DNA of 14,460 bases from a virus. Its lineage: Duplodnaviria > Heunggongvirae > Uroviricota > Caudoviricetes. A program made the position numbers and the translations under genes. Shown here in pieces: positions 1 through 13,722 of this stretch. Every line of letters starts with the position of its first letter. Positions within the stretch are counted from its first letter, which is position 1. Below the pieces are notes generated by a model. The model saw nothing but the letters and a program-made list of their open reading frames with translations, was not told the origin of the DNA and searched no databases. The stretch covers positions 1-14,460 of IMG/VR virus record IMGVR_UViG_2645727821_000004; one strand, 5' to 3'.

Positions 1-79
1 TGTGAACACTGACTGCAATATCAACTGGCTCTCCGGAAACAAGAAAAACTGTCAGAACAAGTGCAAATGCTGTATTCAT
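1..79 (-). CDS. ydfD: YdfD-like small membrane/lysis protein, N-terminal part only; gene continues past the window start
   Basis: Minus-strand ATG at 79-77 overlaps the dicB stop (ATGA). In-window translation MNTAFALVLTVFLVSGEPVDIAVSVH is a hydrophobic N-terminus matching my recollection of Qin YdfD. Partial ORF, not in the six-frame track. Confidence 0.5.
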   Translation of the reverse strand, partial: MNTAFALVLTVFLVSGEPVDIAVSVH

Positions 80-264
80 TGCCAGCATCCTTTTTGTATC
101 GGACGTAAACGGGCCAGCATTGAAAGAATGCATATTTTATTTAATAACTCCCGTTCGTGTTTTCTCTTGTTAATGGCATCTTCAGTAAATACAGGATTAC
201 TGATAGTGACACCAATTTCAAAACAACCTTCAGACGTATTAACGTTTGGTAATAACGTTTTCAT
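76..264 (-). CDS. dicB: DicB-like cell-division inhibitor (62 aa)
   Basis: ATG at 264-262 inside track ORF 76..369 gives MKTLLPNVNTSEGCFEIGVTISNPVFTEDAINKRK..., near-identical to recalled E. coli DicB. Lies directly downstream of DicF, the canonical dicF-dicB order. Confidence 0.75.
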   Translation of the reverse strand: MKTLLPNVNTSEGCFEIGVTISNPVFTEDAINKRKHERELLNKICILSMLARLRPIQKGCWQ

Positions 265-438
265 TATCGCGCCCTCAACAATGAGTTTTGTGATGCGGTG
301 CCTGGTGCCTCCAGGTGACGTTAACCAGTTAACAATTAACACCGGATACAGAGAATCCACCCATAACACTGTTTTTGGTTTTAACTGTTCCGCGTGCGCT
401 TAGCCGCATTCACCGCATCACAAAATTCACTTTAAAAA

Positions 439-491
439 GGGCGGCAGAGCAGTCACGGAGTAAAACTGATACCGCCAAACGTCACCAGAAA
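439..491 (-). ncRNA. dicF: DicF small RNA (53 nt), Hfq-dependent ftsZ-targeting sRNA of the dicB operon
   Basis: Minus-strand sequence TTTCTGGTGACGTTTGGCGGTATCAGTTTTACTCCGTGACTGCTCTGCCGCCC matches the DicF sequence as I recall it, followed by TTTTT (plus 434-438). No ORF on that strand; dicB follows. Confidence 0.8.
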
Positions 492-1037
492 ATTGATAAC
501 AGAGGGCGTTGCAGCGGGGTTGTCACTTAAGCGTATGGTCAACCTGACAACCCGGTGTTCTCAACGGGGAAGGAATAACCCCGCCATACTTACCGTCGCG
601 CCATTTCGCGGAGTGCCACAACCGGAAGCGCACGGTCGAATTAAATTTAACGACACCGTACAGAGAGACCAATTTCGCCGTGCACTTTCGCGTTATGCCC
701 TGGCTTTTCAGGGATATATCCTTTCAGTAAACTGTCAGTACCGGATTCTTATCCGTGTCCGGCGCACGACCACACGTGACAGCGTGTTGGCCTCCATTTT
801 TAACCCAGAACCTCAATGGAGGATAAAATGCCAAACAAAAAAAGAAATCCGCTTATTGAAAAACAGATTGAATGCCTGGTAAATCAACTCAAGCAATCAG
901 GGTTATTAAAAACTCATTCAGAGTTGAGGCTCACAGAATCAGCATTCGACGATAAATTAAATAATGTCCTTTATAATGGCATTATTGATTTTAATCGTTC
1001 TTTTGGTCGCCGCGGCCCTGCTGGTGTTTCCTTATAA

Positions 1038-1676
1038 TTACCAGTCAATCCAGAGCGGACCGTGTTCAGCGTAAATATAACTGTACACATCCAGATTATA
1101 TTTGTGGTCTGTTAAGAACAGGCCGCAAATACATGCCGAAGCTTCCAGGGCAGCGGCTCTGTTACTGAATAACCATGTAGCAACATTCCAGCGTTTTTCT
1201 GCATCCCAGTCTTTCTCAAGGCCTGATACCATGAAGAAACCGTTAGTGTTGCCATCAAATAATTCTGTTTCCAGATTTTTAAGCAATGCCTGATGGACTC
1301 TTGCCAGGTATTCCGCCGGAATTTCGCCACGAATTCTGATGAGATTGTCATAAACAAACATGTTCCCCGCATATGGCGATTTTTCTTTCTTGTTTTTTAA
1401 ACCAGCATCATGAGCAAACTGTTCAATTTCTTCTTCCGTTGGTTTCGTATTGATGTTTTGCGCTGTCGTTTCTGCAATTTTCTTTGCCACACTCTCTGAG
1501 TCGTGTTTATTTACAGACGCACAGAAATACAATCCGGTAAACGCATCGCGCACATTACGAGCCATATTATCAGTGTCTTTTTTCGTTACCGATTCCAATG
1601 CAAGTTCGTTCAGACGATGACGAAGTGTGTGTGCTGCAATCTCCTGGATTGAAGTAGGTAAATCTTTAAATTCCAT
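1038..1676 (-). CDS. hypothetical protein (212 aa), unknown function, in repressor-controlled leftward operon
   Basis: Track ORF 1038..1688. ATG at 1676-1674 is preferred because GAGG sits 6 nt upstream on the minus strand; the ATG at 1688 has no SD. Soluble protein, no motif I recognise. Confidence 0.55.
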   Translation of the reverse strand: MEFKDLPTSIQEIAAHTLRHRLNELALESVTKKDTDNMARNVRDAFTGLYFCASVNKHDSESVAKKIAETTAQNINTKPTEEEIEQFAHDAGLKNKKEKSPYAGNMFVYDNLIRIRGEIPAEYLARVHQALLKNLETELFDGNTNGFFMVSGLEKDWDAEKRWNVATWLFSNRAAALEASACICGLFLTDHKYNLDVYSYIYAEHGPLWIDW

Positions 1677-1687
1677 CGTCAACCTCA

Positions 1688-1840
1688 TCAGTCAGAGTTT
1701 CTTGCTAACCAGCGATGCGCGCCAGCTTCGGTTTTAAACGTTTTACTTTTGGTATACGTCATCGCGGTGAACGTGCCGTCCTGGTTGGGAAACACGCCGT
1801 ACACCAGAGATTCGTTGTTGCCAAGATCGATAGTATCCAT
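1688..1840 (-). CDS. small protein (50 aa), first gene of leftward operon; YdfA-like by position
   Basis: Track ORF 1688..1921. Internal ATG at 1840-1838 has an AGG-N5 SD and gives MDTIDLGNNESLVYGVFPNQDGTFTAMTYTKSKTFKTEAGAHRWLARNSD, matching the expected ~51-aa YdfA size. The 77-aa start at 1921 also has a GAGG SD and cannot be excluded. Confidence 0.5.
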   Translation of the reverse strand: MDTIDLGNNESLVYGVFPNQDGTFTAMTYTKSKTFKTEAGAHRWLARNSD

Positions 1841-2022
1841 GCTGACCTCATTTCCCCTTAACGCCGGGGTAGCGGAACAAAAACCTGCTGCATAGTTATT
1901 AAAGTTGAACCCTGCCGTCATGTTCTTACGCCTCGGGCTGGCTACTTAACCCCTGACCACTGCCTGGTAACTCGAAGTATTGCCCTGCGTTCTGTGGGGC
2001 GGGGTGGGTTGGCATGAAAGGA

Positions 2023-2063
2023 AGGATACCCATGGGTATTTAAAAAGTAAATACCCATGGGTA
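2023..2063 (-). promoter_or_regulatory. Leftward early promoter candidate (PL/PdicB-like) with two identical 12-bp palindromic operators
   Basis: Perfect palindrome TACCCATGGGTA at 2027-2038 and 2052-2063 (25-bp centre spacing). Minus-strand -35 TTTACT (plus 2046-2051) and -10 TATCCT (plus 2023-2028) with 17-bp spacer; the -10 overlaps operator 1. Confidence 0.5.
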
Positions 2064-2107
2064 ATTTTTTTTGATGTATCTTAACCGGTGACTGATTGTT
2101 TGGTGAG

Positions 2108-2527
2108 TTATGATGCGTTTTGTGCTTTCTTTTTACGGATTTCTTCGTAGATCATATTGTAATACTGTTTTTTCTCTTCAAGAGTTTTTAATAAGTTATC
2201 CGCTTCACTTTCTGGTAGTTCGTCTAAGAGATCTAAAAAAATACGTTGTCGTGGCGTTAGAACCCTTGTTTCATAATTGGAGGCTGTGTTCGTTGATGAT
2301 GAAACGATACCATCCATCCATCCCCGAGGTAACCCAAAGGACTCTTCTATAATCTCCACCATATCATCTGCGATCCGTTTTTTTCCTTTTTTCCCCTCTG
2401 GGTACAACATTCTTGATACATAAGAAGGCTCGCGACCGATCTTTCTGGCCACGTTAACCGCTTTACCATCGCATTTCTCATCACGAATTTTGATGAGTTG
2501 TTGTCGTCTAAATTCATATTTGTCCAT
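2108..2527 (-). CDS. Prophage immunity repressor, HTH, DicA/RacR-like; no S24 peptidase domain
   Basis: Track ORF 2108..2569 (TTG start would read through the operators); ATG at 2527-2525 preferred, 139 aa. HTH-like AVNVARKIGREPSYVSRML. C-terminus with LPESEADNLL resembles recalled DicA (ALPESEQD). Divergent from the cro-like gene across an operator-rich 100-bp region. Confidence 0.7.
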   Translation of the reverse strand: MDKYEFRRQQLIKIRDEKCDGKAVNVARKIGREPSYVSRMLYPEGKKGKKRIADDMVEIIEESFGLPRGWMDGIVSSSTNTASNYETRVLTPRQRIFLDLLDELPESEADNLLKTLEEKKQYYNMIYEEIRKKKAQNAS

Positions 2528-2548
2528 AGGTAAATAATAGATGCGATT

Positions 2549-2603
2549 ACCGCAAGGTAAACAACCCAAGGGTATTGACTTTTGTTTACCCGCAGGTATT
2601 CTT
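2549..2603 (+). promoter_or_regulatory. Rightward early promoter (PR-like) with three operator 12-mers (OR1-3 analogues)
   Basis: TACC-N4-GGTA 12-mers at 2549-2560, 2563-2574 and 2587-2598. -35 TTGACT at 2575-2580, -10 TATTCT at 2597-2602 (16-bp spacer). AAGGAG SD at 2617-2622 precedes the cro-like ATG at 2628. Confidence 0.55.
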
Positions 2604-2627
2604 TGCTGTGTTTACTAAGGAGTAGCT

Positions 2628-2909
2628 ATGGAAGAATTAAGAATATTTCTCAATTCTCTTTCGTCAGATGAACAGCGTATGTTTGCATGTGAGTGTGGTA
2701 CTAGCATCGGTTATCTAAGAAAGGCATTGAGTAAAGGTCAAGTGTTAGGGGCATCGTTATGTGTCCTTATTGAGCGAGCCAGTAATGGTGAAGTTACACG
2801 TCAGCAACTAAGGCCTTTTGATTGGATGAATATTTGGCCTGAGCTGGAAGATACCAAAACGTTAACACAACCACTTTCTAGGAGCTTGATTCATGAAAAT
2901 CAGGCATGA
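2628..2909 (+). CDS. Cro-like HTH regulator (YdaS/DicC-type)
   Basis: 93 aa with strong SD; HTH-like CECGTSIGYLRKALSKG; a ...QLRPFDW motif resembles recalled YdaS. First gene rightward of the operators. Confidence 0.65.
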   Translation: MEELRIFLNSLSSDEQRMFACECGTSIGYLRKALSKGQVLGASLCVLIERASNGEVTRQQLRPFDWMNIWPELEDTKTLTQPLSRSLIHENQA

Positions 2910-3318
2910 ACACATCCGCATGGCGATGAATGCATGGGCGCGTCCTGATGGTGAAAAAGTTCCTGCGGCTGAGATAACCAGGGCGTATTTCGAACTGGGT
3001 ATGACGTTCCCGGAACTGTACGACGACAGCCACCCAGAAGCCCTGGCGCGTAATACCCAGAAAATTTTCCGCTGGGTAGAGAAAGACACCCCTGATGCAG
3101 TTGAAAAAATTCAGGCGTTGTTACCGGCGATCGAAAAGGCAATGCCGCCTCTGCTGGTGGCCAGAATGCGCAGCCACAGTTCAGCTTATTTTCGGGAGCT
3201 GGTGGAGATGCGGGAACGACTGGTGAGAGACGCTGATGATTTTGTCGCGGTGGCAATAGCTGGCTTCAACCAGATCAACCGTGGTGGCCCGGCCGGAAAT
3301 GCTGTGGCTGTGCATTGA
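2893..3318 (+). CDS. YdaT-like protein (CII functional analogue / toxic regulator family)
   Basis: 141 aa; AGGAG SD at 2880-2884. Starts MKIRHEHI and ends ...VH, with KIQALLPAI motif, as in recalled Rac YdaT. Overlaps the cro-like gene by 17 nt. Confidence 0.65.
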   Translation: MKIRHEHIRMAMNAWARPDGEKVPAAEITRAYFELGMTFPELYDDSHPEALARNTQKIFRWVEKDTPDAVEKIQALLPAIEKAMPPLLVARMRSHSSAYFRELVEMRERLVRDADDFVAVAIAGFNQINRGGPAGNAVAVH

Positions 3319-3389
3319 TCGGCAATATTCATACCGGATCTCTTTCGGTAATACGTGATTAAAAAGATTCGGTATCTGAAGAGGTTAGT

Positions 3390-4460
3390 ATGGCTAATGC
3401 CTGGCTCAGATTATGGCATGACATGCCAAATGACCCCAAGTGGCGAACCATTGCCCGGGTGTCAGGTCAGCCAATTGCAACAGTGATGGCTGTGTATATC
3501 CACCTCCTGGTGAGCGCGTCACGAAATGTCACGCGAGGTCACGTTGATGTCACGACCGAGGATTTGGCAAGCGCGCTCGATGTGACAGAAGAGGTGATTG
3601 ATTCAATTTTGCAGGCAATGCAGGGGCGGGTTCTGAAGGGGGATCTTATCACCGGATGGGAAAAACGCCAGGTACTGAAGGAGGATAACGGTAACGTTTC
3701 GCCAACCGCAAAATCCCCGGCAGAGCGCAAGAGAGCGCAGCGGGAGAGGGAAAGGCAGCGGGAGCAAAATGGCGACTGTCACGGCGTGTCACGAAATGTC
3801 ACGCACATGTCACGACGAGTCACGACAGATAAAGATACAGATAAAGATACAGATCAAGAAGATCAAAACACTATGGTTCATGGCGAGAAAAACGCCACGA
3901 ACCTGACAGGGGATGTTCAGACCGTCAATCCTGGTCAGCCGGCAGGCACGACACCGGAAGCCGATTCAGCGTATGCGCTGAAAGCCGATTCGGGCGCTGT
4001 GCAGCAGGCGATGGTCGCCGGACCGGAGAGATCACACCAACCGCAGCAGCCTGAAGCCGATTCCGCCCTTCAGCGGGAAGCCGATCGGGTAGTCCCGGAA
4101 AACACCGGGCAGCCTGTGGGACGAGTGGATTACCCGGACGGGTTCGAACAGGTCTGGCGGGAATATCCGCTGCGTGCCGGGGCAAATCCGAAGAAATCCG
4201 CGTTCAGTGCCTGGAAGGCCAGGTTACGCGAGGGGGTGCCACCGCAGGTCATGCTGGATGGTGTGAGGCGTTACGCGAGGTACCTGGCGGCGACCGGGAA
4301 AGCGGGAACGGAATTTGTTCAGCGGGCGACAACGTTTTTTGGACCTGACCGGAATTTTGAAAACCCCTGGTTGCTCCCGACTGGCGGGACGAACAACCAG
4401 CGTTGTGTGAATCATATTTCCGAACCGGATACCGAAATTCCACCAGGTTTCAGGGGGTGA
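3390..4460 (+). CDS. Replication initiator (lambda O-like / YdaU-like) containing an internal origin
   Basis: 356 aa; GAAGAGG SD. Lies immediately upstream of the DnaC-like gene; iteron arrays and an AT-rich tract inside the coding sequence (next two features) parallel lambda ori within O. Confidence 0.7.
   Translation: MANAWLRLWHDMPNDPKWRTIARVSGQPIATVMAVYIHLLVSASRNVTRGHVDVTTEDLASALDVTEEVIDSILQAMQGRVLKGDLITGWEKRQVLKEDNGNVSPTAKSPAERKRAQRERERQREQNGDCHGVSRNVTHMSRRVTTDKDTDKDTDQEDQNTMVHGEKNATNLTGDVQTVNPGQPAGTTPEADSAYALKADSGAVQQAMVAGPERSHQPQQPEADSALQREADRVVPENTGQPVGRVDYPDGFEQVWREYPLRAGANPKKSAFSAWKARLREGVPPQVMLDGVRRYARYLAATGKAGTEFVQRATTFFGPDRNFENPWLLPTGGTNNQRCVNHISEPDTEIPPGFRG
3518..3554. repeat. 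Iteron array 1: four GTCACG repeats at 10-11 bp periodicity
   Basis: GTCACG at 3518, 3528, 3538 and 3549, read directly from the sequence. Confidence 0.7.
3778..3866. repeat. Iteron array 2 (five GTCACG repeats) plus adjacent AT-rich tandem repeats with two GATC sites; putative replication origin
   Basis: GTCACG at 3778, 3788, 3798, 3809 and 3819. Tandem AGATAAAGATAC at 3827-3838 and 3839-3850. GATC at 3852-3855 and 3861-3864. Confidence 0.65.
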
Positions 4461-4466
4461 AGGATT

Positions 4467-5213
4467 ATGAAAAATATAGCGACAGGAGGCGTTCTTGAAC
4501 GTATCCGCAAGCTGGCACCACAGCATGTAACCGCGCCGTACCGGACGGCAGAAGAGTGGCGTGAGTGGCAACTTGCGGAAGGCCAGAAACGTTGCGAGGA
4601 GATCAACCGTCAGAATCGTCAGTTGCGGGTGGAAAAAATTCTGAATCGCTCCGGTATCCAGCCGTTGCACCGCAAATGTTCGTTTGCGAATTACCGGGTG
4701 CAGAACGACGGCCAGCGATATGCGCTGAGCCAGGCAAAATCCATCGCGGACGTACTGATAACCGGATGCACAAATTTCGTGTTCAGCGGTAAGCCGGGTA
4801 CCGGAAAAAATCACCTGGCAGCCGCCATTGGTAATCATCTTCTGGAGAAAGGTCGCAGCGTGATTGTGGTCACGGTGGCTGATGTGATGCTGGCGCTACA
4901 CGGCAGCTACGACAACAAAAACTCAGGCGAAAAATTTTTGCAGGGTTTGTGTGACGTTGACCTGCTGGTTCTGGATGAGATTGGCATGCAGCGTGATACG
5001 CGCAACGAACAGGTCACACTGAACCAGATCGTCGATCGCAGAACAGCCGCGATGCGCAGTGTCGGGCTGCTGACGAACCTGAACCATACCGCAATGAGCA
5101 CCCTGCTTGGCTGGCGCGTGATGGACCGCATGACCATGAACGGTGGGCGCTGGGTGAATTTTAACTGGGAGAGCTGGCGTCCGAATGTCGGTCAGCCAGG
5201 AATTGAAAAGTAA
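4467..5213 (+). CDS. DnaC-like AAA+ helicase loader (phage replication protein P analogue, YdaV-like)
   Basis: 248 aa. Walker A GKPGTGKNHLA and Walker B LLVLDEIG. Start 7 nt after the initiator stop, with GGTGAAGGA SD. Confidence 0.85.
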   Translation: MKNIATGGVLERIRKLAPQHVTAPYRTAEEWREWQLAEGQKRCEEINRQNRQLRVEKILNRSGIQPLHRKCSFANYRVQNDGQRYALSQAKSIADVLITGCTNFVFSGKPGTGKNHLAAAIGNHLLEKGRSVIVVTVADVMLALHGSYDNKNSGEKFLQGLCDVDLLVLDEIGMQRDTRNEQVTLNQIVDRRTAAMRSVGLLTNLNHTAMSTLLGWRVMDRMTMNGGRWVNFNWESWRPNVGQPGIEK

Positions 5214-5237
5214 TTTTTATCGGGGAGAAAAAATTTA

Positions 5238-6008
5238 ATGGAAACCGTTTTAGACGCACTGAAAGCGATGGGAAAAGCCACGTCGGTAGAACTGGCTACG
5301 CGACTTGATATCAGTCGTGAAGAAGTGCTGAACGAGCTGTGGGAACTGAAAAAGGCTGGCTTCGTTGATAAAAGCGTATACACCTGGCGTGTGGCTGGCG
5401 AAGGTGAATCCGGGGTAGCCGAAGAGCAGCCAGCACAATCTGAAGCACAGGATGTGCTAACCAGGGAGGTCGAACGAAAAGTTACCGCTGACATGATGAT
5501 TGAGTTTATCAGTCAGGAGGGGGCTAAAACGTGTGAGGAGCTGGCGGGTAAGTTCGGTGTCAGTACTCGCAAGGTTGCTTCCACGCTGGCGGTAGTAACC
5601 GCAACGGGGCGGCTGGCACGCGTTAATCAGAACGGTAAATTTCGTTACTGCATACCGGGCGATAATTTACCAGCAGAGCCGAAAGCTGCATCGGTAACAG
5701 AAGCTGATGGTAAATCCTTTCCTCTGCCATCAGGTGTTGCGTTACCAGTACAGGAGGCTGCAACACAGGAAGATATTAAAACAGAAACGGCGGCGGACAT
5801 TGTGCAGTCGCTACCACCGTTTACCGAAACGCAAGCGGATGACCTGGTTTTATCATCGCTGCATATGGCAAACCGCGAGCTGCGTCGGGCGAAAAGTTAT
5901 GTCCAGAAGTGGGAGCGTGTCTGCGCCGCGCTGCGGGAGCTGAACAAGCACCGGGATATTGTTCGACTGATTGTCGATTCCTCCAGTCGTATTGTGTCGG
6001 AAAAGTGA
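5238..6008 (+). CDS. hypothetical protein with two winged-helix-like modules and an acidic linker
   Basis: 256 aa; GGGAGA SD. wHTH-like segments [28 protein letters not shown] and [29 protein letters not shown]. Confidence 0.55.
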
Positions 6009-6022
6009 TTGCCGGAGGCGCT

Positions 6023-6445
6023 ATGGCAAAAGTATTTACACAGGAAGAGCGGGAAGATGTGAAGGCTCGCATTGTGGAACTGGTACGCAGGGATGGGCGG
6101 AAAACGCGTAAACAACTGGAAAATGAAACCGGGGCGACGAGACATCTGATAGAAGTTCTGACGAAAGAGCTGGTAGCCAGTGGTGTTGTATATGGCTCAG
6201 GGTATGGAATATTTCCTTCAGAGCAGGCACGTAAGGACTGGATGAAAGCCATTGAAAAGATGTCGAAAGCAAAGTCAAAGAAACTGGCTGTGGTTGATCC
6301 TTACCTTATCTGGTCATTACCAGACGGAGAAATACGTCGTTACGACAGGCGCCTGAACATGATTTGTCACGATTGCCGGAAGAGCGAAGCTATGCAGCGT
6401 GTACTGGCTTTCTATCAGGGTAATTTTCAGGAGGCGATACTGTGA
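6023..6445 (+). CDS. hypothetical winged-helix-like protein (141 aa)
   Basis: ATG at 6023 with GGAGG SD at 6014-6018, inside track ORF 5909..6445 whose GTG start overlaps the upstream gene. Confidence 0.5.
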   Translation: MAKVFTQEEREDVKARIVELVRRDGRKTRKQLENETGATRHLIEVLTKELVASGVVYGSGYGIFPSEQARKDWMKAIEKMSKAKSKKLAVVDPYLIWSLPDGEIRRYDRRLNMICHDCRKSEAMQRVLAFYQGNFQEAIL

Positions 6446-6502
6446 GTGAAATTAGCTATCAGGCTTCAATTACCGCTGGCATTCGCATCAAAGGAGAGGA
6501 GC

Positions 6503-6859
6503 ATGGAAATAAAACCAGAAGATGAGTTAAGCAATATCGTTTTATTTCCGATAAAAGAGGATGACCCTCGTAATCAGGTTAATTTTCTTTATGAGCCATC
6601 GGAAAGACCATATTGCCATCACACTTCTGTCCGGGTTGACGAAAAAGAGCGTCAGGTCCGCTGTAAAATCTGCGGTGCAGTTGTGGAACCATTTGACTGG
6701 ATGCTCTCTGTGGCGAAAAGAGAAACCAGGATGGCAGATGATGTAAAACAATTGCGCCAGGAGGAACGGGAAAGGCGAAAAAATATAGAAAAGCTAATTC
6801 AGATTGAGCGCAACGTGAAAGCGCGGATACGCAGGGCGACAAAAGCCCGAACTGAATAA
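6503..6859 (+). CDS. hypothetical zinc-ribbon protein (118 aa)
   Basis: ATG at 6503 with AAAGGAGAGGAG SD, inside track ORF 6446..6859. Candidate zinc ribbon CHH ... CKICG; basic coiled C-terminus. Confidence 0.5.
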   Translation: MEIKPEDELSNIVLFPIKEDDPRNQVNFLYEPSERPYCHHTSVRVDEKERQVRCKICGAVVEPFDWMLSVAKRETRMADDVKQLRQEERERRKNIEKLIQIERNVKARIRRATKARTE

Positions 6860-6955
6860 TTAAATTTGGCACAGAACATAAAATTAATCCTTAACCGGAG
6901 GGATTTATGCACCCTCAGAACATCAGGAGGCCACCCGAAAAGGCGGTAGTGAAAA

Positions 6956-7363
6956 ATGGCTGAATTAACCAAAGAGCAATTAATCGAAGAAGTTAAATTA
7001 AAAATAGCGATTGCGAAATGCCATCCCAATTCAGGCGTGGCACGAGTAGAGGGTGAGTTATTCAAAATTGCAGTGACATCGCTGGAAGCAGAACCGATAG
7101 CGTGGGAATGCGGTGAAAACATAATCCTGTTTAATCCTGACACAGTTGAAGCATACGCAAAACGTGCGGAGATATCACCTAAACCACTATTCGCCGCCCC
7201 ACCTGTGCTGGTAGTGCCTGAAGGGCTTGTTAAAGCGGTACGCTTTTATGAACAGGTAAAGTGTGAGAATCCGCCAGCCGAAACCGGAGCATGGAAAGAC
7301 GCTGTTGACTGGGTACTCGAAGAAGCTTGCCAGGCTGTAAACATTGGCATCAAAGGAGGGTGA
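6956..7363 (+). CDS. hypothetical phage protein (135 aa), DUF550-like N-terminal module
   Basis: N-terminus LTKEQLIEEVKLKIAIAK ... VTSLEAE is paralogous to the N-terminus of the 7656..8471 product. Confidence 0.5.
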   Translation: MAELTKEQLIEEVKLKIAIAKCHPNSGVARVEGELFKIAVTSLEAEPIAWECGENIILFNPDTVEAYAKRAEISPKPLFAAPPVLVVPEGLVKAVRFYEQVKCENPPAETGAWKDAVDWVLEEACQAVNIGIKGG

Positions 7364-7364
7364 T

Positions 7365-7652
7365 ATGGCAACTTTGCAGGAATTAATCGACCTGACGCCA
7401 GAACAGGAAAAAGCGTGGAATCGCCTTGTGAAGGCTGTAAAGGATTTCAGGGCAGCCGGAGGAAAGTTTTATAGCGTCCTGGACACGCTGAGCGCATACA
7501 ACGGCGAGCACGTTGCCAGCATTGATAACGATAAGGGCTACCACACTGCAAGCGTCTATATGCCTAGCATTGATGCGCCAGGGCTAACCAGTTGGGCTGA
7601 TGATTGGCACGGCATCACGCTGAAAGATGGCGTTGAAGTGGATGAGGACTAA
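7365..7652 (+). CDS. hypothetical protein (95 aa)
   Basis: ATG at 7365 with AAAGGAGGG SD at 7352-7360, inside track ORF 7344..7652 (TTG start). Confidence 0.5.
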   Translation: MATLQELIDLTPEQEKAWNRLVKAVKDFRAAGGKFYSVLDTLSAYNGEHVASIDNDKGYHTASVYMPSIDAPGLTSWADDWHGITLKDGVEVDED

Positions 7653-7655
7653 CAC

Positions 7656-8471
7656 ATGACTACTTTTACCGACAAAGAACTGATTAAAGAAATCAAAGAG
7701 CGCATAGGCAGCCTGGACGTTCGAGACAATATTGAGCGCCGGTCGTATGAAATTGCACTGGCATCGCTGGAACGCGAACAGATTCGCCACGAGCATGCCA
7801 AATGGTCTGACTCCACATTTGGCTGCGTTGGCCCCATTGGTCCACTGAAACACCTCTCAAAAGAGGCACTGGAAGCCGCAGCCGAACCAGACGATCTTAG
7901 CGAGTGGGCTGATATGCAGTTTCTGTTGTGGGATGCACAGCGCCGTGCTGGCATCAGCGATGCTGAAATTAACGTTGCTATGGAAGATAAATTGAAGATC
8001 AACATGGAGCGCCAGTGGCCTGAGCCAAAAGATGGTGAGCCTCGCTTGCACATTAAAGAACCCGGCAACTCTCCGGTAATTCCGGATGGTTTATCCACGG
8101 TATGCGCTGAGGCTTATCAGGTTGTAGGAGTTATGGCAGATGCGCTTGGTGTATTCGGTGATGCAGCAGTACAGAAAGTTCTGGATAACCTGTCACAGCA
8201 AAAACTTGTTCACAGAGATGTGCTGCCGTTCTCGCTTCCGGTAACTCCGGATGGTTGGATAAGCTGTAGTGATCGAATGCCTGAAAAGGGCCAGAACGTG
8301 CTTATTTCGGTGAATTTCGATAGCTCTCTGGTTGAACCGCTAATATGCTCCGCACGCTATACCGGAAGCACCTTTCGGCGCGGAGATGCAACGATTAAGC
8401 CGGGTAATGGTATTGAGCAAGCAACTCACTGGATGCCGCTACCGGAACCGCCGCAGGAGGTGAATCAATGA
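7656..8471 (+). CDS. phage protein with DUF550-like N-terminus and DUF551-like C-terminus
   Basis: 271 aa. C-terminal PDGWISCSDRMPEKGQNVLISV ... THWMPLPEPP is typical of DUF551 as I recall it. Confidence 0.6.
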   Translation: MTTFTDKELIKEIKERIGSLDVRDNIERRSYEIALASLEREQIRHEHAKWSDSTFGCVGPIGPLKHLSKEALEAAAEPDDLSEWADMQFLLWDAQRRAGISDAEINVAMEDKLKINMERQWPEPKDGEPRLHIKEPGNSPVIPDGLSTVCAEAYQVVGVMADALGVFGDAAVQKVLDNLSQQKLVHRDVLPFSLPVTPDGWISCSDRMPEKGQNVLISVNFDSSLVEPLICSARYTGSTFRRGDATIKPGNGIEQATHWMPLPEPPQEVNQ

Positions 8472-8551
8472 GCTGGCCTGAAGCGTTCACAACGGTAGGA
8501 ATTGCAATGGCGGTGGCGCTGGTGGTGTATTCTATTTGCCGCTGGGGGTAA
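8468..8551 (+). CDS. small hydrophobic peptide (27 aa, MSWPEAFTTVGIAMAVALVVYSICRWG)
   Basis: ATG overlaps the upstream stop (ATGA at 8468-8471); AGGAGG SD at 8455-8460. One predicted transmembrane helix. Below the track size cut-off. Confidence 0.4.
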   Translation: MSWPEAFTTVGIAMAVALVVYSICRWG

Positions 8552-8711
8552 GGTATTGAAAAACGCCCACACACATAAGTTGGGCACCTGAGTTGCGGGG
8601 ATAGGGAGTTAGTTAAATAGTTATACAACAATACCTGATTTTGTATTGAAGCAAGGAAGAGGTTGCCACATATTGAATCATGCACGTGTACGTCAAATGC
8701 GGGAGGTCATC

Positions 8712-8801
8712 GTGCTGGTTCTGAAATGTGCGCTGGCTATTGCGGCTGTAATGGCAATTTATTGTCTTGTTATTGTTCTTATGGATCACCTTTCTGATTG
8801 A
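8712..8801 (+). CDS. small hydrophobic peptide (29 aa, GTG start, MLVLKCALAIAAVMAIYCLVIVLMDHLSD)
   Basis: GGGAGG at 8701-8706, 5 nt before GTG at 8712; stop TGA at 8799-8801. Possible promoter TTGAAG-N17-CATATT upstream (~8648-8676). Confidence 0.3.
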   Translation: MLVLKCALAIAAVMAIYCLVIVLMDHLSD

Positions 8802-8955
8802 TTTTATATTGGCGAGGTGACGAGAGTTAAGTAGAATTGCTGCGGGTGCTTGAGGCTATCTGCCTCGGGCATGAACAGCAACGGCAGATAGATAAAAGCC
8901 CCAGTTAACATTACGCGTCCTGCAAGACGCTTAACATTAATCTGAGGCCCAATCT

Positions 8956-9153
8956 ATGCTTCACAAACGTAGGTTAGCCTCTTACGAGCCGAAAGGCAAG
9001 GAGAAGCAGGCTATGAAGCAGCAAAAGGCGATGTTAATCGCCCTGATCGTCATCTGTTTAACCGTCATAGTGACGGCACTGGTAACGAGGAAAGACCTCT
9101 GCGAGGTACGAATCCGAACCGGCCAGACGGAGGTCGCTGTCTTCACAGCTTAA
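8956..9153 (+). CDS. mok-like reading frame (in-frame N-terminal extension of hok)
   Basis: ATG at 8956 in frame with hok, as in recalled chromosomal mokC/hokC. 65-aa track ORF. Confidence 0.4.
   Translation: MLHKRRLASYEPKGKEKQAMKQQKAMLIALIVICLTVIVTALVTRKDLCEVRIRTGQTEVAVFTA
9013..9153 (+). CDS. hok: Hok/Gef-family type I toxin (HokD/RelF-like), apparently truncated by a premature stop (46 aa)
   Basis: MKQQKAMLIALIVICLTVIVTALVTRKDLCEVRIRTGQTEVAVFTA matches recalled HokD up to a TAA at 9151-9153. In-frame continuation GAA CCT GAG GAG TAA encodes EPEE-stop, the canonical Hok C-terminus. Confidence 0.8.
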   Translation: MKQQKAMLIALIVICLTVIVTALVTRKDLCEVRIRTGQTEVAVFTA

Positions 9154-9239
9154 GAACCTGAGGAGTAAGAGACCAGGCGGGGGAGAAATCCCTCGCCACC
9201 TCTGATGTGTCAGGCATCCTCAATGCACCCACACTTAAC

Positions 9240-9256
9240 CCGCTTCGGCGTTTTTT
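9240..9256 (+). terminator. putative intrinsic terminator at 3' end of hok transcript
   Basis: CGC-TTCG-GCG short stem with UUCG tetraloop, then T6 (9251-9256). Stem is short. Confidence 0.4.
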
Positions 9257-9311
9257 CGTTGATTAACTCTAGTTATCAGAGAACCGAACTTTTACTGATG
9301 GGGGCAGGGAG

Positions 9312-9704
9312 ATGAAGAAACTTGTTTTAGTTGCAGGTGTAATGATTGCAACAGTAATGTTGGGAGGGTGTGCAGCAAAGGTCGATCCTGCGTTGAAAGC
9401 AGAAGCAATGAAGCCACTAACATGTAAAGATGAAAAGCAATGTGACTTTTATTGGAAACGCGCGCAATTCTGGTTGGCTAATAATTCCGCATGGAAAATT
9501 CAAACGGCGACAGACACGCTAATTTCCACTTATAACCCCTCACCAAATAGTCCACTCCTCGCTTATCAAGTGAGTAAAATGCCAAATGAAGATGGATCCT
9601 CAAGAATTTTCATCCAGCCTTTTTGCGATAATATGTTTGGCTGTCAACCAAACCTCTATCAGGCGGTTGTTTCCTTCAAAAACTTCGTTAGAACTGGGCA
9701 GTAG
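9312..9704 (+). CDS. prophage lipoprotein (130 aa), function unknown
   Basis: Signal peptide MKKLVLVAGVMIATVMLGGC with lipobox LGGC; GGGAG SD. Confidence 0.65.
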   Translation: MKKLVLVAGVMIATVMLGGCAAKVDPALKAEAMKPLTCKDEKQCDFYWKRAQFWLANNSAWKIQTATDTLISTYNPSPNSPLLAYQVSKMPNEDGSSRIFIQPFCDNMFGCQPNLYQAVVSFKNFVRTGQ

Positions 9705-9896
9705 TGTATAGCGGGGACGGTAAATTATTAGTGAAAACGCCGTGAACCCTCACCCAATGTGAGCTAACCCCATCAAACATGACTGTGATGATTAGCATAC
9801 CCGCTTCAGCGAGTTTTGTTTTTTCCGGGAATTCTGGTTTACAATCTGCACGCCAGCCTGAACAACTGGCACCTGCTGCGCCAGCAGAGAAAACAA

Positions 9897-10169
9897 ATGG
9901 CGCACAATACCAAAAATCACAATTCTGATGCCGTTCGTGCCAGCAGGCATGGGCGGCGTTCGCGCGTATTTAAAACCGACTGGTACCAACACCCTCCATG
10001 CACTGAAGAACAGGCCGAATGGCTGATTCAGTGTTACCGCAGACACGGATACGAGATTAAGAAAGCCCTCAGCCTCGATTATCGTCACTGGATAATCTCC
10101 GTCAGGCTTCCTTACTCCGAACGCCCACCGCGTCCGTCCCGCACATTCCAGCAACGGATCTGGAGGTAA
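9897..10169 (+). CDS. small basic protein (90 aa), Rem-like by position
   Basis: ATG at 9897 inside track ORF 9816..10169. Sits immediately upstream of the YdfU-like gene as rem does in Qin. Candidate promoter TTGTTT-N18-TACAAT at 9816-9845. Confidence 0.45.
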   Translation: MAHNTKNHNSDAVRASRHGRRSRVFKTDWYQHPPCTEEQAEWLIQCYRRHGYEIKKALSLDYRHWIISVRLPYSERPPRPSRTFQQRIWR

Positions 10170-10170
10170 C

Positions 10171-11217
10171 GTGCGGGTATTACTTCGACCTGTTCTGATA
10201 CCGGAACTCGGGCTGGTGGTCCTTAAGCCCGGTCGTGAATCCATGCCGGTATTTCACAATCCTCGAGTGCTGGTGGAGCCGGAACCGAAAAGTATGTGCG
10301 GCCTGCCATCCGGAGTCGTCCCTGCCGTTCGCCAGCCGCTGGCGGAGGATAAATCATTACTGCCATTTTTCAGCGATGATCGGGTGATTCGTGCTGTTGG
10401 CGGCGCTGGGGCACTGTCTGACTGGCTGTTGCGTCATGTCAAATCCTGCCAGTGGCCTCATGGTGACTATCATCACAGTGAAATCGTCATACATCGTTAC
10501 GGTACCGGCGCGATGGTGTTGTGCTGGCACTGCGACAACCAGCTGCGTGACCAGACATCCGAATCACTCGAGCAACTTGCTCATCAAAACCTGTCAGCAT
10601 GGATGATTGACGTCATCGGTCACGCAATAAGCGGTACGCAGGAGCGTGAATTATCTCTGGCTGAATTATCCTGGTGGGCGGTCCGCAATCAGGTGGCGGA
10701 CGCGCTACCGGAAGCGGTATTACGTCGTTCGCTGGGGTTGCGTGCGGAAAAAATCCGCTCAATGTACCGTGAAAGCGACATCGTACCGGGAGAGCAGACC
10801 GCCACCAGCATACTGAAGCAGCGCACAAAAAATCTTGCGCCGCTGCCTCACGCCCACCAGCAAAACCCGCCACAGGAAGAGGCGGTGGTCAGCATTGCCG
10901 TTGATCCGGAGTCTCCGGAATCTTTCATGAGACGACCTAAACGTCGCCGTTGGGTAAAGGAGAAATATACGCGCTGGGTGAAGACACAGCCGTGTGCGTG
11001 TTGTGGTCAACCAGCCGACGATCCCCATCACCTGATTGGTCACGGTCAGGGAGGGATGGGAACAAAGGCCCACGATATTTTCACGCTACCGTTGTGCCGG
11101 GAACATCACAACGAACTTCATGCGGATCCGCTGGCGTTCGAAGAAAAGCATGGCTCTCAGGTTGATTTAATTTTTCGTTTTCTTGATCACGCCTTTGCAA
11201 CCGGCGTGCTTGGGTAA
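10171..11217 (+). CDS. YdfU-like DUF968 protein (348 aa) with HNH-like C-terminal Cys/His cluster
   Basis: GTG start 1 nt after the upstream stop; GGAGG 5 nt upstream. C-terminal CACCGQPADDPHHLIGHGQGG ... CREHHNELH. Length matches recalled YdfU (~349 aa). Confidence 0.7.
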   Translation: MRVLLRPVLIPELGLVVLKPGRESMPVFHNPRVLVEPEPKSMCGLPSGVVPAVRQPLAEDKSLLPFFSDDRVIRAVGGAGALSDWLLRHVKSCQWPHGDYHHSEIVIHRYGTGAMVLCWHCDNQLRDQTSESLEQLAHQNLSAWMIDVIGHAISGTQERELSLAELSWWAVRNQVADALPEAVLRRSLGLRAEKIRSMYRESDIVPGEQTATSILKQRTKNLAPLPHAHQQNPPQEEAVVSIAVDPESPESFMRRPKRRRWVKEKYTRWVKTQPCACCGQPADDPHHLIGHGQGGMGTKAHDIFTLPLCREHHNELHADPLAFEEKHGSQVDLIFRFLDHAFATGVLG

Positions 11218-11229
11218 AAGAGGTTACTG

Positions 11230-11592
11230 ATGCGTATAGAGCTTGTTTTGCCTTACCCGCCAACGGTGAACACCTACTGGCGACGTCGTGGCAGCACATA
11301 TTTTGTATCAAAAGCCGGTGAGCGTTATCGCCGGGATGTGGCGCTTATTGTTCGTCAGCAGCGACTGAAATTAAATCTGTCCGGTAGGCTGGCAATCCGA
11401 ATTATTGCAGAGCCACCGGATAAACGCCGCCGTGACCTGGACAATATCCTGAAAGCACCACTGGATGCGCTGATGCATGCCGGACTTCTCATAGACGACG
11501 AGCAGTTTGATGAAATTAATATAGTGCGCGGTCAGCCTGTTCCTGGTGGGCGGCTGGGCGTGAAGATTTACGAAATAATGCATGACGGGTAG
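11230..11592 (+). CDS. rusA: RusA Holliday-junction resolvase
   Basis: 120 aa. PYPPTVNTYWRRR ... DKRRRDLDNILKAPLDAL ... GGRLGVKIYEI aligns to the RusA family including the catalytic acidic cluster. AAGAGG SD. Confidence 0.85.
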   Translation: MRIELVLPYPPTVNTYWRRRGSTYFVSKAGERYRRDVALIVRQQRLKLNLSGRLAIRIIAEPPDKRRRDLDNILKAPLDALMHAGLLIDDEQFDEINIVRGQPVPGGRLGVKIYEIMHDG

Positions 11593-11600
11593 GTCCAAAA

Positions 11601-12422
11601 ATGAAACTGGAAGATTTACCGAAATACTATTCCCCAAAATCGCCAGGTCTGACTGATGCATCCGTCTCGACGTCAAAAGATGTGCTGAGCATCACTGATG
11701 TGATGGCTGCGCAGGGTATGACACAAAACCGGGCTGAGATGGGATTTTCTGCGTTCCTGGGGAAAATGGGCATCAGTATGAATGACAGGGCGCGGGCAAC
11801 AGAATTACTGGCAGATTATGCACTCAGTCGGTGCGATCGCGTGGCGGCGTTGAGAAAACTTCCGGCAGAAATAAAACCGGCAGTGATGCGTATTATGGCT
11901 TCGTACGCTTTTGAGGATTATGCCCGCAGTGCAGCGAGTAAAAAACAGTGCCCTTGTTGCGGTGGGAAAAAATTTATTGAAAGCGTAGTTTTTACAAACA
12001 AGGTCCAGTATCCGGATGGCAAGCCGCCAGTATGGGCAAAGTGTACAAAAGGCGTGTATCCGTCTTACTGGGAGGAATGGAAAAAAGTCCGGGAGGTGGT
12101 GAAAGTCTCCTGTCCAGAATGCAAAGGGAAAGGGGAGGTTTCTACGGCCTGTAAAGATTGCCGTGGACGTGGTGTTGCCATTCATCGTGAAGAGTCGGAA
12201 AAACGGGGTATGCCTGTTATCAGAGACTGCCAGCGTTGTGGTGGTCGTGGCTATGAAAGATTACCGTCGACGGAGGCATTTAATGCCATATGTGAGGTAA
12301 CAAAGCAGATAACACGCGCGTCATGGGAAAAAACTGTTAAGCAATTCTATGACACGCTGGTGATTAAGTTTGATATTGAGGAAGCATGGGCAGAGCGGCA
12401 GTTAAAAAAGGTAACCAGATAA
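11601..12422 (+). CDS. putative late-gene antiterminator Q (QuuQ/phage-82-like), with four CxxCxGxG zinc-finger-like motifs
   Basis: 273 aa. Position between rusA and a promoter/terminator pair is the Q slot. Motifs CPCCGGKK, CPECKGKG, CKDCRGRG, CQRCGGRG. Call is by position and zinc-binding character. Confidence 0.55.
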   Translation: MKLEDLPKYYSPKSPGLTDASVSTSKDVLSITDVMAAQGMTQNRAEMGFSAFLGKMGISMNDRARATELLADYALSRCDRVAALRKLPAEIKPAVMRIMASYAFEDYARSAASKKQCPCCGGKKFIESVVFTNKVQYPDGKPPVWAKCTKGVYPSYWEEWKKVREVVKVSCPECKGKGEVSTACKDCRGRGVAIHREESEKRGMPVIRDCQRCGGRGYERLPSTEAFNAICEVTKQITRASWEKTVKQFYDTLVIKFDIEEAWAERQLKKVTR

Positions 12423-12427
12423 CAATG

Positions 12428-12456
12428 TTGATTTTTCCGGAATCTGTGGTAAATTT
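12428..12456 (+). promoter_or_regulatory. candidate late promoter (PR'-like) just downstream of Q
   Basis: TTGATT at 12428-12433 with TAAATT/AAATTT 16-17 bp downstream; 6 nt after the Q stop. Confidence 0.35.
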
Positions 12457-12502
12457 ATCCTAACGATGGGCGTTTTATGCCTGACGTTAAAAGATTTTTT
12501 AC

Positions 12503-12526
12503 AACCCGCCGCCGTGCGGGTTTTTT
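12503..12526 (+). terminator. intrinsic terminator (tR'-like)
   Basis: Stem AACCCGC/GCGGGTT (12503-12509 / 12516-12522), loop CGCCGT, followed by a T-run. Confidence 0.65.
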
Positions 12527-12630
12527 GTTGGTTTAACAGGTTATAATGTATAGTGCGAAACTGCCTGTTCAGCAGAATCATTTTGTTTGTAGTAGAGTTC
12601 ACAAGTCGTCATTATCAGGCAAAGAGATTT

Positions 12631-13032
12631 ATGGTATTAAAGTATCAGCCGTCTGTTCGTTCTGTTTTAATGTGTGATTTTCGGGGAATGGTTGTTCCGG
12701 AAATAGTCAAGGCCAGGCCAGTGGTAGTAGTATCCAGAAACAGACACAACAATCAATTGGTAACAGTGGTACCAATAAGCACTACTGAACCGATCCCTCG
12801 CAGAGATTGCCATCATGAGTTATCAGAAAACCCCATTCCTGGTAATGAGCATATTACTTGCTGGGTAAAATGTGACATGTTGATGACGGTTTCATTGAGC
12901 CGACTGGATCGCATAAAAACCAGAAACTGGGAGGGGCGAAATTATATTGTTCCTATGATTGCGGAAGATGAGTTTGAGAATATTAAACGGGCGGTATTGC
13001 ACGGGATAGGGATGGCTTATCTGTATCGATAA
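12631..13032 (+). CDS. MazF/PemK-fold toxin-like protein (133 aa) with no adjacent antitoxin ORF
   Basis: By-eye parallel to MazF: CDFRG ... E..KARPVVVVSRNRHNNQLVTVVPISTT vs MazF VDFDP ... RPAVVLSPFMYNNKTGMCLCVPCTT; C-terminal ...IKRAVLHGIG vs ...KINVLIG. Perfect TATAAT at 12542-12547 upstream. Confidence 0.6.
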   Translation: MVLKYQPSVRSVLMCDFRGMVVPEIVKARPVVVVSRNRHNNQLVTVVPISTTEPIPRRDCHHELSENPIPGNEHITCWVKCDMLMTVSLSRLDRIKTRNWEGRNYIVPMIAEDEFENIKRAVLHGIGMAYLYR

Positions 13033-13067
13033 TCGAAAACGATTATCGAATTCGATATAAATTTATA

Positions 13068-13096
13068 TTGACACACATAGTGTGTTGACTGATACT
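13068..13096 (+). promoter_or_regulatory. strong sigma70-like promoter candidate with embedded inverted repeat
   Basis: TTGACA at 13068-13073, 17-bp spacer, GATACT at 13091-13096. Spacer holds ACACA-TAG-TGTGT and a second TTGAC. Confidence 0.5.
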
Positions 13097-13185
13097 GTCG
13101 CTGTACCCTGATGGGACTTGTGAGACTTCCGAACAGGAAGCCAGGAGTAGCGATAAGGTGATGACAAGCCTGCTGCCCCTGTGTA

Positions 13186-13217
13186 AAAGGCATCTTAATG
13201 GTGCCTTTGTCATTTTT
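13186..13217 (+). terminator. terminator-like hairpin 1
   Basis: Stem AAAGGCA/TGCCTTT (13186-13192 / 13202-13208), 9-nt loop, T5 at 13213-13217. Confidence 0.45.
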
Positions 13218-13228
13218 ATCAAAAGTTC

Positions 13229-13251
13229 CCCGCCATTGAGCGGGTTTTTTT
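13229..13251 (+). terminator. intrinsic terminator 2
   Basis: Stem CCCGC/GCGGG (13229-13233 / 13240-13244), loop CATTGA, T7 at 13245-13251. Confidence 0.65.
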
Positions 13252-13374
13252 ATGCCTGAAAAACGACACAGGACGTTAAACGCGCTGGTGGTTGCGAATA
13301 TCAGTTTTTCAGCTTGCTGGCTTTTCAGACAAGAGTTATTGGTATGTCACGTTAACCAGAAAAGGGAAAAAGAC

Positions 13375-13572
13375 ATGCTAAAACAGCAGGATATGACCGA
13401 AACCGCCAGAGTGGTGTTTAATGAATTAAGCGTCACCGAACCGACGACCGTCGGGGAGATTGCGCAGAATACTTACCTTTCACGCGAATGCTGCCAGTTA
13501 ATACTGACCCAGCTTGTTATGGCGGGCCTGGCAGATTATCAGTTTGGTTGTTACAGACGCCTTCCGCAGTGA
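13375..13572 (+). CDS. small winged-helix DNA-binding protein (65 aa), PapI/FaeA-like
   Basis: ATG at 13375 with AAGGGAAA SD, inside track ORF 13252..13572. ARVVFNELSVTEPTTVGEIAQNTYLSRECCQLILTQLVMAGLADYQ aligns by eye to PapI; the similarity is modest. Confidence 0.45.
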   Translation: MLKQQDMTETARVVFNELSVTEPTTVGEIAQNTYLSRECCQLILTQLVMAGLADYQFGCYRRLPQ

Positions 13573-13581
13573 AGGCTTTTT
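13559..13581 (+). terminator. intrinsic terminator overlapping the wHTH gene stop codon
   Basis: Stem GCCTTC/GAAGGC (13559-13564 / 13571-13576), loop CGCAGT, T5 at 13577-13581. Confidence 0.65.
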
Positions 13582-13722
13582 AATTTGTGGTAATGGGCGG
13601 CTGGTGGGTGTTAGCGGCACCTGCCAGCCATCTGCTCATGCGTTGGGGTCACAAGCAAACCTCAGGCCCATCTGCTTTGCGCAAAAGCGGTATGAGCCTA
13701 TCAGAGAAGCGCTTATTGATCT

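Follow-up and report, generated by a model that had tools for sequence, protein, structure and literature searches.

Where does a lambdoid prophage begin to copy its DNA? In lambda itself, four 19-bp near-palindromic iterons bind dimers of the O protein. The iterons of the plasmids P1, F, R6K, RK2 and pSC101, whose Rep initiators are winged-helix proteins, are about 17–22 bp long, usually spaced two helical turns apart and intergenic, and most origins of this kind also need DnaA boxes. In the Bacillus phage SPP1, oriL lies in gene 38 and works with the replisome organizer G38P, the loader G39P and the helicase G40P (PMC6316719, PMC5615212). Here we describe a stretch of 14,460 nucleotides (nt) from a virus of the Caudoviricetes (IMG/VR record IMGVR_UViG_2645727821_000004, positions 1 to 14,460), hereafter the window, whose numbering is used for all coordinates unless positions within the gene (gene nt) are stated. 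Its predicted replication initiator gene, the close relatives of which are named 'phage replisome organizer' in RefSeq, carries two arrays of the hexamer GTCACG, the second of them followed by an A-rich tract. We propose, with a probability of roughly 80%, that positions 3518–3869 constitute the replication origin of a lambdoid prophage, embedded in its own initiator gene. Such an origin would combine the principle of the lambda and SPP1 origins with direct, phased iterons of the plasmid kind (PMC5043065, PMC6316719).

An earlier note on this DNA had called the gene O-like and its layout that of the lambda origin within O. The position and the arrangement hold up: as in lambda, the initiator gene harbours the proposed origin where its DNA-binding N-terminal part meets the partner-recruiting C-terminal one, and an A+T-rich tract, in the window the presumed place of melting, borders one side of an array of initiator sites. 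The gene likewise follows cro- and cII-like genes in a rightward early operon, and just as transcription from pR crosses ori-lambda, transcription from the window's upstream operon would cross the proposed origin; N-terminal domain and (proposed) origin, moreover, are exchanged between phages as a block in both systems (PMC5043065). What does not carry over is homology to O and the type of repeat. The initiator matched no Pfam-A family at E ≤ 0.01 (at E ≤ 5, just HTH_Crp_2 and PhyR at chance level), and we therefore do not regard it as a homologue of lambda O. Unlike the lambda iterons, the window repeats are 6–7 bp long, direct, placed every 10–11 bp, devoid of internal inverted symmetry and divided into two arrays 260 bp apart, one of which sits inside the coding sequence of the DNA-binding domain. 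The partner differs, too, being a DnaC-like AAA+ loader instead of P, although a relative from E. coli EC6868 does have a P-like partner.

With SPP1, the window shares a replisome organizer with direct repeats inside its own gene, beside an A+T-rich unwinding element, the organizer presumably being what binds these repeats in the window (PMC6316719, PMC5615212). Genes of the loader/helicase type lie downstream in both cases, and the N-terminal fold predicted for the window protein appears to come closest to the N-terminal domain of DnaD (DnaD-NTD), to whose class the replisome organizers belong. On the other side, the protein matched none of the Pfam families Phage_rep_org_N, Rep_Org_C and DnaB_2, the hosts of its family are Proteobacteria, and the repeats differ in sequence and length; the second SPP1 origin, oriR, is about 13 kb away, whereas the second array of the window is 260 bp off and in the same gene. 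Iteron plasmids differ in other respects, for the window has a core of 6–7 bp that recurs at every turn, is coding and comes without a DnaA box or a consensus site for the integration host factor (IHF). The window repeats, being short, direct and helically phased, have more in common with the iterons of plasmids and with oriL of SPP1 than with lambda iterons.

Two other systems were considered and set aside. The Rac prophage of E. coli K-12 (ydaS-ydaT-ydaU-ydaV, oriJ) has the same flanking genes, encoding YdaS, YdaT, the DnaC-like YdaV and YdaW/DUF1627; ydaU, at the position of the initiator, encodes a DUF1376 protein and not the N-terminal domain of the window, so oriJ cannot be the same element. 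The 'Eru' replication modules of non-lambdoid Stx phages are unrelated, having been published as helicase/Toprim systems with repeats unmentioned.

Two helically phased hexamer arrays

Four plus five copies of GTCACG at 10–11-bp spacing, in two phased clusters about 225 bp apart, had been reported in the earlier note, and their exact positions (Table 1) bear this out, with a gap of 223 bp and a distance of 260 bp from start to start. The entire window contains 18 copies of GTCACG on both strands combined, against 6.5 ± 2.5 in shuffled sequence, and 0 of 200 shuffles reached 18. Nine copies of one hexamer inside 350 nt were seen in 0 of 300 Markov simulations, the maximum being 6 and the usual number 4. 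All nine copies fall on the same helical phase, with a resultant length of 0.98 at 10.4 bp per turn (10.0 bp does nearly as well, 0.96); the 260 bp from array to array equal 25 turns at 10.4 bp, and array 1 is in phase with array 2. The repeats are direct and consist of the conserved core GTCACG with a weak preference for T at −1 (81/164 copies) and variable flanks. An iteron-type theta origin is expected to hold at least three helically phased copies of a replicon-specific repeat, and this locus holds four and five. In the protein, array 1 codes for the last part of helix 1 together with the loop/strand preceding the helix-turn-helix (HTH) of the N-terminal domain, array 2 for a disordered linker after the basic helix.

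Array 1 varies among the closest relatives. Of 30 distinct E. coli-type sequences, 29 read GTCACA at its third copy (3538–3543), the usual E. coli form thus having 3 + 5 perfect copies; the window, like distant relatives, has GTCACG there. In E. coli EC6868 and E. albertii, array 1 (gene nt 129–186) is longer by 21 nt and contains two additional, partly degenerate copies; since this expansion adds seven residues to the winged-helix loop, the loop evidently tolerates a change in length.

Constraint on the DNA sequence

According to the earlier note, the iterons are translated as repeated Val-Thr codons. This applies to four of the nine copies (3528, 3549, 3798 and 3819), the other five being read as Ser-Arg (3518, 3788 and 3809) or as Gly/Cys-His (3538 and 3778). 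The hexamers are thus read in all three frames, which argues for a constraint on the DNA. We compared silent sites in 21 relatives whose genomes range from 34 to 69% GC and whose median pairwise nucleotide identity is 74%. In array 1, the codons GTC, ACG, GGT and CAC were each retained in 21/21 relatives and TCA in 20/21, and mean codon entropy amounted to 0.10 bit inside hexamers versus 1.36 bit for invariant residues outside them (Mann–Whitney p = 3.5e-5). The latter use two to six codons; even Arg49, located between two hexamers, uses four. Val65, encoded by an inverted copy of the hexamer, is GTG in 19/19 relatives, and inverted copies are consistent with recognition of duplex DNA. At closer range, in 30 distinct relatives that are 92–95% identical and stem from a first IMG/VR scan, 3 of 54 positions vary within hexamers versus 85 of 426 outside them (Fisher p = 0.0045).

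The positions of the arrays in the gene are constant from Entomomonas (34% GC) to Pseudothauera (69% GC), and array 2 has 3–5 copies at the same place in all GTCACG-type relatives. Whether the repeats recur in related prophages was a point that the earlier note had regarded as decisive; they are conserved in the initiator genes of the 21 diverged relatives, and the layout in two arrays recurs, in part with other hexamers, in a scan of 116 loci (see below). These comparisons, with those of the A-rich tract below, show that selection acts on both repeats and tract at the level of the DNA. The element is a remarkably clear natural case of dual coding, its silent sites frozen by a DNA-level function across beta- and gammaproteobacteria.

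The adjoining A-rich tract

In agreement with the earlier description of tandem repeats and two GATC sites after the second array, we find 2.9 tandem copies of ACAGATAAAGAT directly behind it (3825–3859), with GATC at 3852–3855 and 3861–3864. The segment 3810–3869 has the lowest G+C content of the gene (0.37) and is also its most A-skewed part (A-over-T skew of 0.58). Across 34 loci, the 36 nt past array 2 exceed the locus average in A+T by 22 points. In eleven high-GC hosts, Asp is encoded by GAT in 94% and Lys by AAA in 84% of cases within the tract, compared with 37% and 27% over the remainder of these genes (Fisher 2e-18), and array 2 adjoins AGATAAAGATAAAGA in every GTCACG-type locus, that of the 69% GC host included. 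By its composition, and by its conservation against host GC, the tract qualifies as an A+T-rich unwinding element beside iterons, at which the duplex would be predicted to melt.

A link of the GATC sites to Dam/SeqA is possible. Counted by eye, GATC occurs in or just past the tract (often as AAAGATCTAAAA) in most Enterobacterales relatives and in about one non-enteric relative. Across the window, the tetramer is rarer than expected (37 vs 56).

A dyad symmetry lies to the right of the tract (Table 1), in an arrangement that presumably recalls the lambda palindrome. It is kept in phiSTEC1589 by a compensatory change from T-A to C-G, with Tritos representing a one-sided intermediate, and GC-rich dyads are modestly enriched at the equivalent place in relatives with other C-terminal modules (mean best stem 5.97 vs 4.95). 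Loci from Aquitalea, Acidovorax and Chromobacterium have a hairpin 20–60 nt past the A-rich tract, whose loop TCACT(A/T)CGTTC is conserved and whose stems are variable but compensating (CACCTACC/GGTAGGTG, CCCACC/GGTGGG and CCTCCTCT/AGAGGAGG).

Hexamer classes across the family

How general is this layout? We scanned two zones of 116 distinct loci de novo for hexamers, the diversity of this set deriving from a second IMG/VR scan that was seeded with a GAACGC-type protein. The same hexamer occurred at least twice in both zones in 108/116 loci, against 2/115 control zones. In the GTCACG, CGAACG/GAACGC and GCAACG classes, 86–88% of the steps measure 10–11 nt; the small GTAACG class is less regular and has inverted copies interleaved. 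This last class is found in Enterobacter, Pantoea, Marinobacter and Sphingomonas, the CGAACG/GAACGC class in several metagenomic lineages, and the GCAACG class in the Ralstonia phage Firinga, with 38% protein identity. Sister subfamilies, in other words, have two arrays at the same positions in the gene, built from a different hexamer, as would be expected of replicon-specific repeats at iteron-type theta origins. A clear hexamer was not found in six relatives of the N-terminal domain. Two loci from Serratia and Pantoea have ACTACG/TACGTA repeats in place of the usual hexamer arrays, and in these a segment past the N-terminal domain (gene nt ~320–470) weakly resembles GIY-YIG (Pfam E 0.009, below cutoff).

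What determines which hexamer is used? As a clade marker, hexamer type serves in part: in 64/71 cases it agrees with that of the nearest neighbour, and identity within types is barely above that between types. GTCACG and GTAACG were switched more than once, between N-terminal domains with 80% identity in their remaining sequence. Within the basic helix, residue 114, with K, A, V and S as class majorities, looked like a candidate for the specificity determinant and was discarded because of two loci that break the pattern (L025 and L031). In the alignment of N-terminal domains, no residue outside the segments encoded by the arrays tracks hexamer class cleanly. A bolder idea, which we consider quite unlikely, is that the protein segment encoded by array 1 itself (a loop/strand of the winged helix, amino acids (aa) 44–55) dictates specificity for the hexamer, along with further copies in the gene; in the GTAACG and Erwinia types, one such copy is found where helix 3 begins. 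Self-encoded specificity would explain the repeated switching between GTCACG and GTAACG as well as the absence of a tracking residue outside the array-encoded segments. If true, a change in the repeat would alter the reading head and its site together. In a milder version, the in-phase arrays may loop the 260-bp segment coding for the DNA-binding domain, thereby coupling initiator expression to origin occupancy.

Conserved phasing between the arrays across loci was also considered. The last-copy distances, counted by hand, are 249, 258–259, 267 and 270 nt and thus mostly near whole turns; with related loci and with indels in multiples of three, we make no claim of this kind.

A proposed origin and its alternatives

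We envisage that initiator monomers would bind the GTCACG hexamers via the N-terminal winged helix and/or the adjacent basic helix. Because the sites recur every 10–11 bp, the bound proteins would come to lie on one face of the helix, where they could form an oligomeric complex that bends the DNA. Array 1 would either join this complex by looping or serve as an auxiliary or control array. The ensuing strain would melt the adjacent A-rich GATAAA/GATACA tract, and the C-terminal module would recruit host DnaB through the neighbouring DnaC-like loader. In this scheme we infer the binder of the repeats, the melting step and the origin activity alike. The comparative data nevertheless favour an origin within the initiator gene, as the earlier note had suggested, in that silent sites are frozen in hosts of 34–69% GC and sister hexamers occupy the same places. 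Between 3300 and 4000, a search for DnaA boxes (TTATNCACA) returned one site alone, with one mismatch (ATATACACA at 3491, minus strand), and the codons that overlap it are not frozen (His38, for instance, is CAC in 15 and CAT in 6 relatives); nor was a convincing IHF consensus seen in this interval. The origin may thus not need DnaA.

Could the arrays serve another purpose? They might be sites of the initiator or of a regulator that are used for control alone—autoregulation by a transcription roadblock within the initiator gene itself, say, or regulation of copy number through titration or handcuffing—with the origin lying elsewhere. A pair of separate arrays does bring to mind the control arrays known from iteron plasmids (PMC5043065), transcripts of the upstream operon would run through both, and a composition scan detected no A+T-rich tract beside array 1. 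What renders this explanation unlikely is that array 2 is joined, in every subfamily and even in hosts of 57–69% GC, to a codon-maintained A-rich tract for which an operator would have no need, and that no second candidate combining repeats with an A+T-rich tract was seen in the window; a control role of array 1, for its part, is compatible with an origin. Our assignment of the binder being indirect, a different factor, from the host or encoded elsewhere by the phage, might also recognize the repeats in packaging, partition, recombination or defence evasion. We hold this to be very unlikely. The hexamer is GTCACG in Escherichia and Erwinia but GTAACG in Enterobacter and Pantoea, and such differences among related Enterobacterales elements speak against a conserved host factor, as does the lack of DnaA-box and IHF consensus sites in 3300–4000; neighbouring phage genes, in turn, vary widely among the loci, whereas the N-terminal domain is constant.

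Frozen silent sites alone do not separate DNA from RNA, and the dyad after the tract could form a hairpin in the transcript, as might be expected if the constraint acted on mRNA structure, on ribosome pausing or on an RNA-binding protein. We judge this highly improbable, since the period of 10–11 nt is the pitch of B-DNA, with nine copies in phase at 10.4 bp, inverted hexamer copies are conserved as well, and the region has no match in Rfam. A last account, a chance pattern or a repeat at the protein level (Val-Thr/Ser-Arg) devoid of DNA function, draws on the fact that S44, V47, T48, G50, H51, V54, T55 and other encoded residues are invariant in protein alignments. It is refuted by the use of three frames and by the fixation of exact codons (TCA for Ser in genomes of up to 69% GC) where other invariant residues vary theirs; in addition, two relatives (L031 and L032) share the hexamer with the window despite quite different loop peptides.

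Exchange of the N-terminal domain and its arrays

E. coli EC6868 has the same N-terminal domain, A-rich tract and arrays (6 + 5 copies, including two degenerate ones of the form GTCAC) as the window; right where the tract ends, a DnaT-like C-terminus takes over, and a lambda-P-like gene comes next. The converse is seen in phiSTEC1589-Stx1c, where the window's C-terminal module and DnaC-like loader are combined with another N-terminal domain and the gene contains zero GTCACG. The N-terminal domain is partnered with DnaB in Firinga and with a Toprim-DnaB primase-helicase in the Pseudomonas phage phi1, so that four kinds of helicase/loader partner combine with this domain and its arrays. These sequences show N-terminal domain and arrays being exchanged as a block against different helicase/loader modules. 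No protein other than the N-terminal domain is found with the repeats in every case; this co-travel is partly forced, array 1 being inside the domain's coding sequence.

The initiator and its gene neighbourhood

Besides its full-length PHROG match (Table 1), the initiator matches PHROGs called 'DnaD-like helicase loader' or 'replisome organizer', namely phrog_1701 (E 1e-61) and phrog_4880 (E 1e-4). An AlphaFold2 (AF2) model of aa 1–131, with a predicted local distance difference test (pLDDT) score of 80, shows a winged HTH with helices at 29–45, 56–63 and 67–77, a wing at 78–88 and a basic helix at 110–126; apart from DnaD-NTD, apparently its closest fold, winged helices of plasmid RepA and of ORC were matched.

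Table 1. Coordinates of the proposed origin, the initiator gene and neighbouring features in the window
Feature	Position	Strand	Description
Iteron array 1	3518–3554	+	4 exact GTCACG, starts 3518, 3528, 3538, 3549 (steps 10, 10, 11 bp); encodes aa 43–55
Iteron array 2	3778–3824	+	5 exact GTCACG, starts 3778, 3788, 3798, 3809, 3819 (steps 10, 10, 11, 10 bp); encodes aa 130–145
Inverted imperfect copy, GTCACa	3581–3586	-	Full CGTGAC here in many distant relatives (minus-strand match, gene nt 192)
A-rich low-G+C tract	3825–3869	+	ACAGATAAAGAT x3, then CAAGAAGATCAAAAC; proposed DNA unwinding element
Dyad symmetry	3875–3903	.	GGTTCATGGCG-agaaaaa-CGCCACGAACC; right of the A-rich tract; 11-pair stem, resembling a terminator on the - strand according to a scan
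Replication initiator ('phage replisome organizer') gene	3390–4460	+	356 aa; phrog_3729 'replication initiation protein', full length, E 5e-242
N-terminal domain	3390–3767	+	Winged helix (aa 1–93) and basic helix (aa 110–126); AF2 model
C-terminal module (putatively partner-recruiting)	3870–4460	+	phrog_1701 over aa 120–356; phrog_18526 over aa 200–356
DnaC-like helicase loader gene	4467–5213	+	7 nt past initiator; Pfam IstB_IS21, Bac_DnaA; phrog_50 'DnaC-like helicase loader'
YdaS/Cro-like gene	2628–2909	+	Upstream, same rightward operon
YdaT/CII-like gene	2893–3318	+	Upstream, same rightward operon
Promoter-like site	2575–2602		Upstream of YdaS/Cro-like gene

The last 24 aa of the initiator (4386–4457, ending in ...VNHISEPDTEIPPGFRG) weakly resemble the extreme C-terminus of E. 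coli DnaT (PDB 6aep, 2ru8 and 9zbt; E 0.014–0.04), aligning with positions 156–179 of the NCBIfam DnaT model, and are common to relatives whose C-terminal domains are otherwise unrelated. This tail may be a docking peptide for helicase or loader. The linker of the initiator contains a 36-nt direct repeat that is 75% identical (3954–3989 and 4050–4085) and encodes PEADSA...AD twice; in phiSTEC1589, a piece of ~60 nt from the same linker region recurs as two repeats upstream of the initiator gene (about 2905–3060 in the numbering of that locus).

With models of the NCBIfam type, the downstream loader scored 489 bits against NF009043 (above cutoff) and 302 bits against the DnaC equivalog (below cutoff). 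A repressor-like gene of opposite orientation precedes the operon, and the loader is followed by DUF1627 and DUF977/Ren-like genes and, later on, by RusA and Q. From its gene content, the context is that of the early-right operon of a lambdoid prophage, that is, of a phage replication module.

Distribution and significance

At least 80% of the initiator gene is present at 90–95% identity in 1647 of 5426 complete E. coli genomes (30%), which places this initiator module among the commonest in E. coli prophages. Phages and prophages from Pseudomonas, Bordetella, Aeromonas, Ralstonia and many other hosts carry relatives as well. None of the records of related phages and genomes that we examined carries an origin annotation, and literature searches on the motif as an iteron, on iterons of prophage replisome organizers and on D3-like Pseudomonas phages returned no description of the element. 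The general design is known from lambda and SPP1, and the family is one for which we found no earlier description of an origin in the literature.

If our proposal is correct, a simple sequence rule—two hexamer arrays, specific to the subfamily in sequence and fixed in position within the gene, followed by a GATAAA-type tract—would allow origins to be annotated in thousands of prophages. The hexamer classes GTCACG, GTAACG, GAACGC and GCAACG would suggest replicon specificity or incompatibility classes, and arrays plus tract could provide compact parts for phage-derived vectors.

Other features of the window

Three features lie outside the replication module. Rfam models identify DicF antisense RNA at 439–490 on the minus strand (76.7 bits) and the sok antitoxin RNA at 8844–9018 on the plus strand (107.6 bits). 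The latter overlaps the start of a putative 65-aa open reading frame (8956–9153), and close relatives annotate hokD near the position of the two. Between the DUF1391 and repressor-like genes, a perfect palindrome with 16-bp arms (TACCCATGGGTATTTA-5-TAAATACCCATGGGTA, 2027–2063) is terminator-like on both strands.

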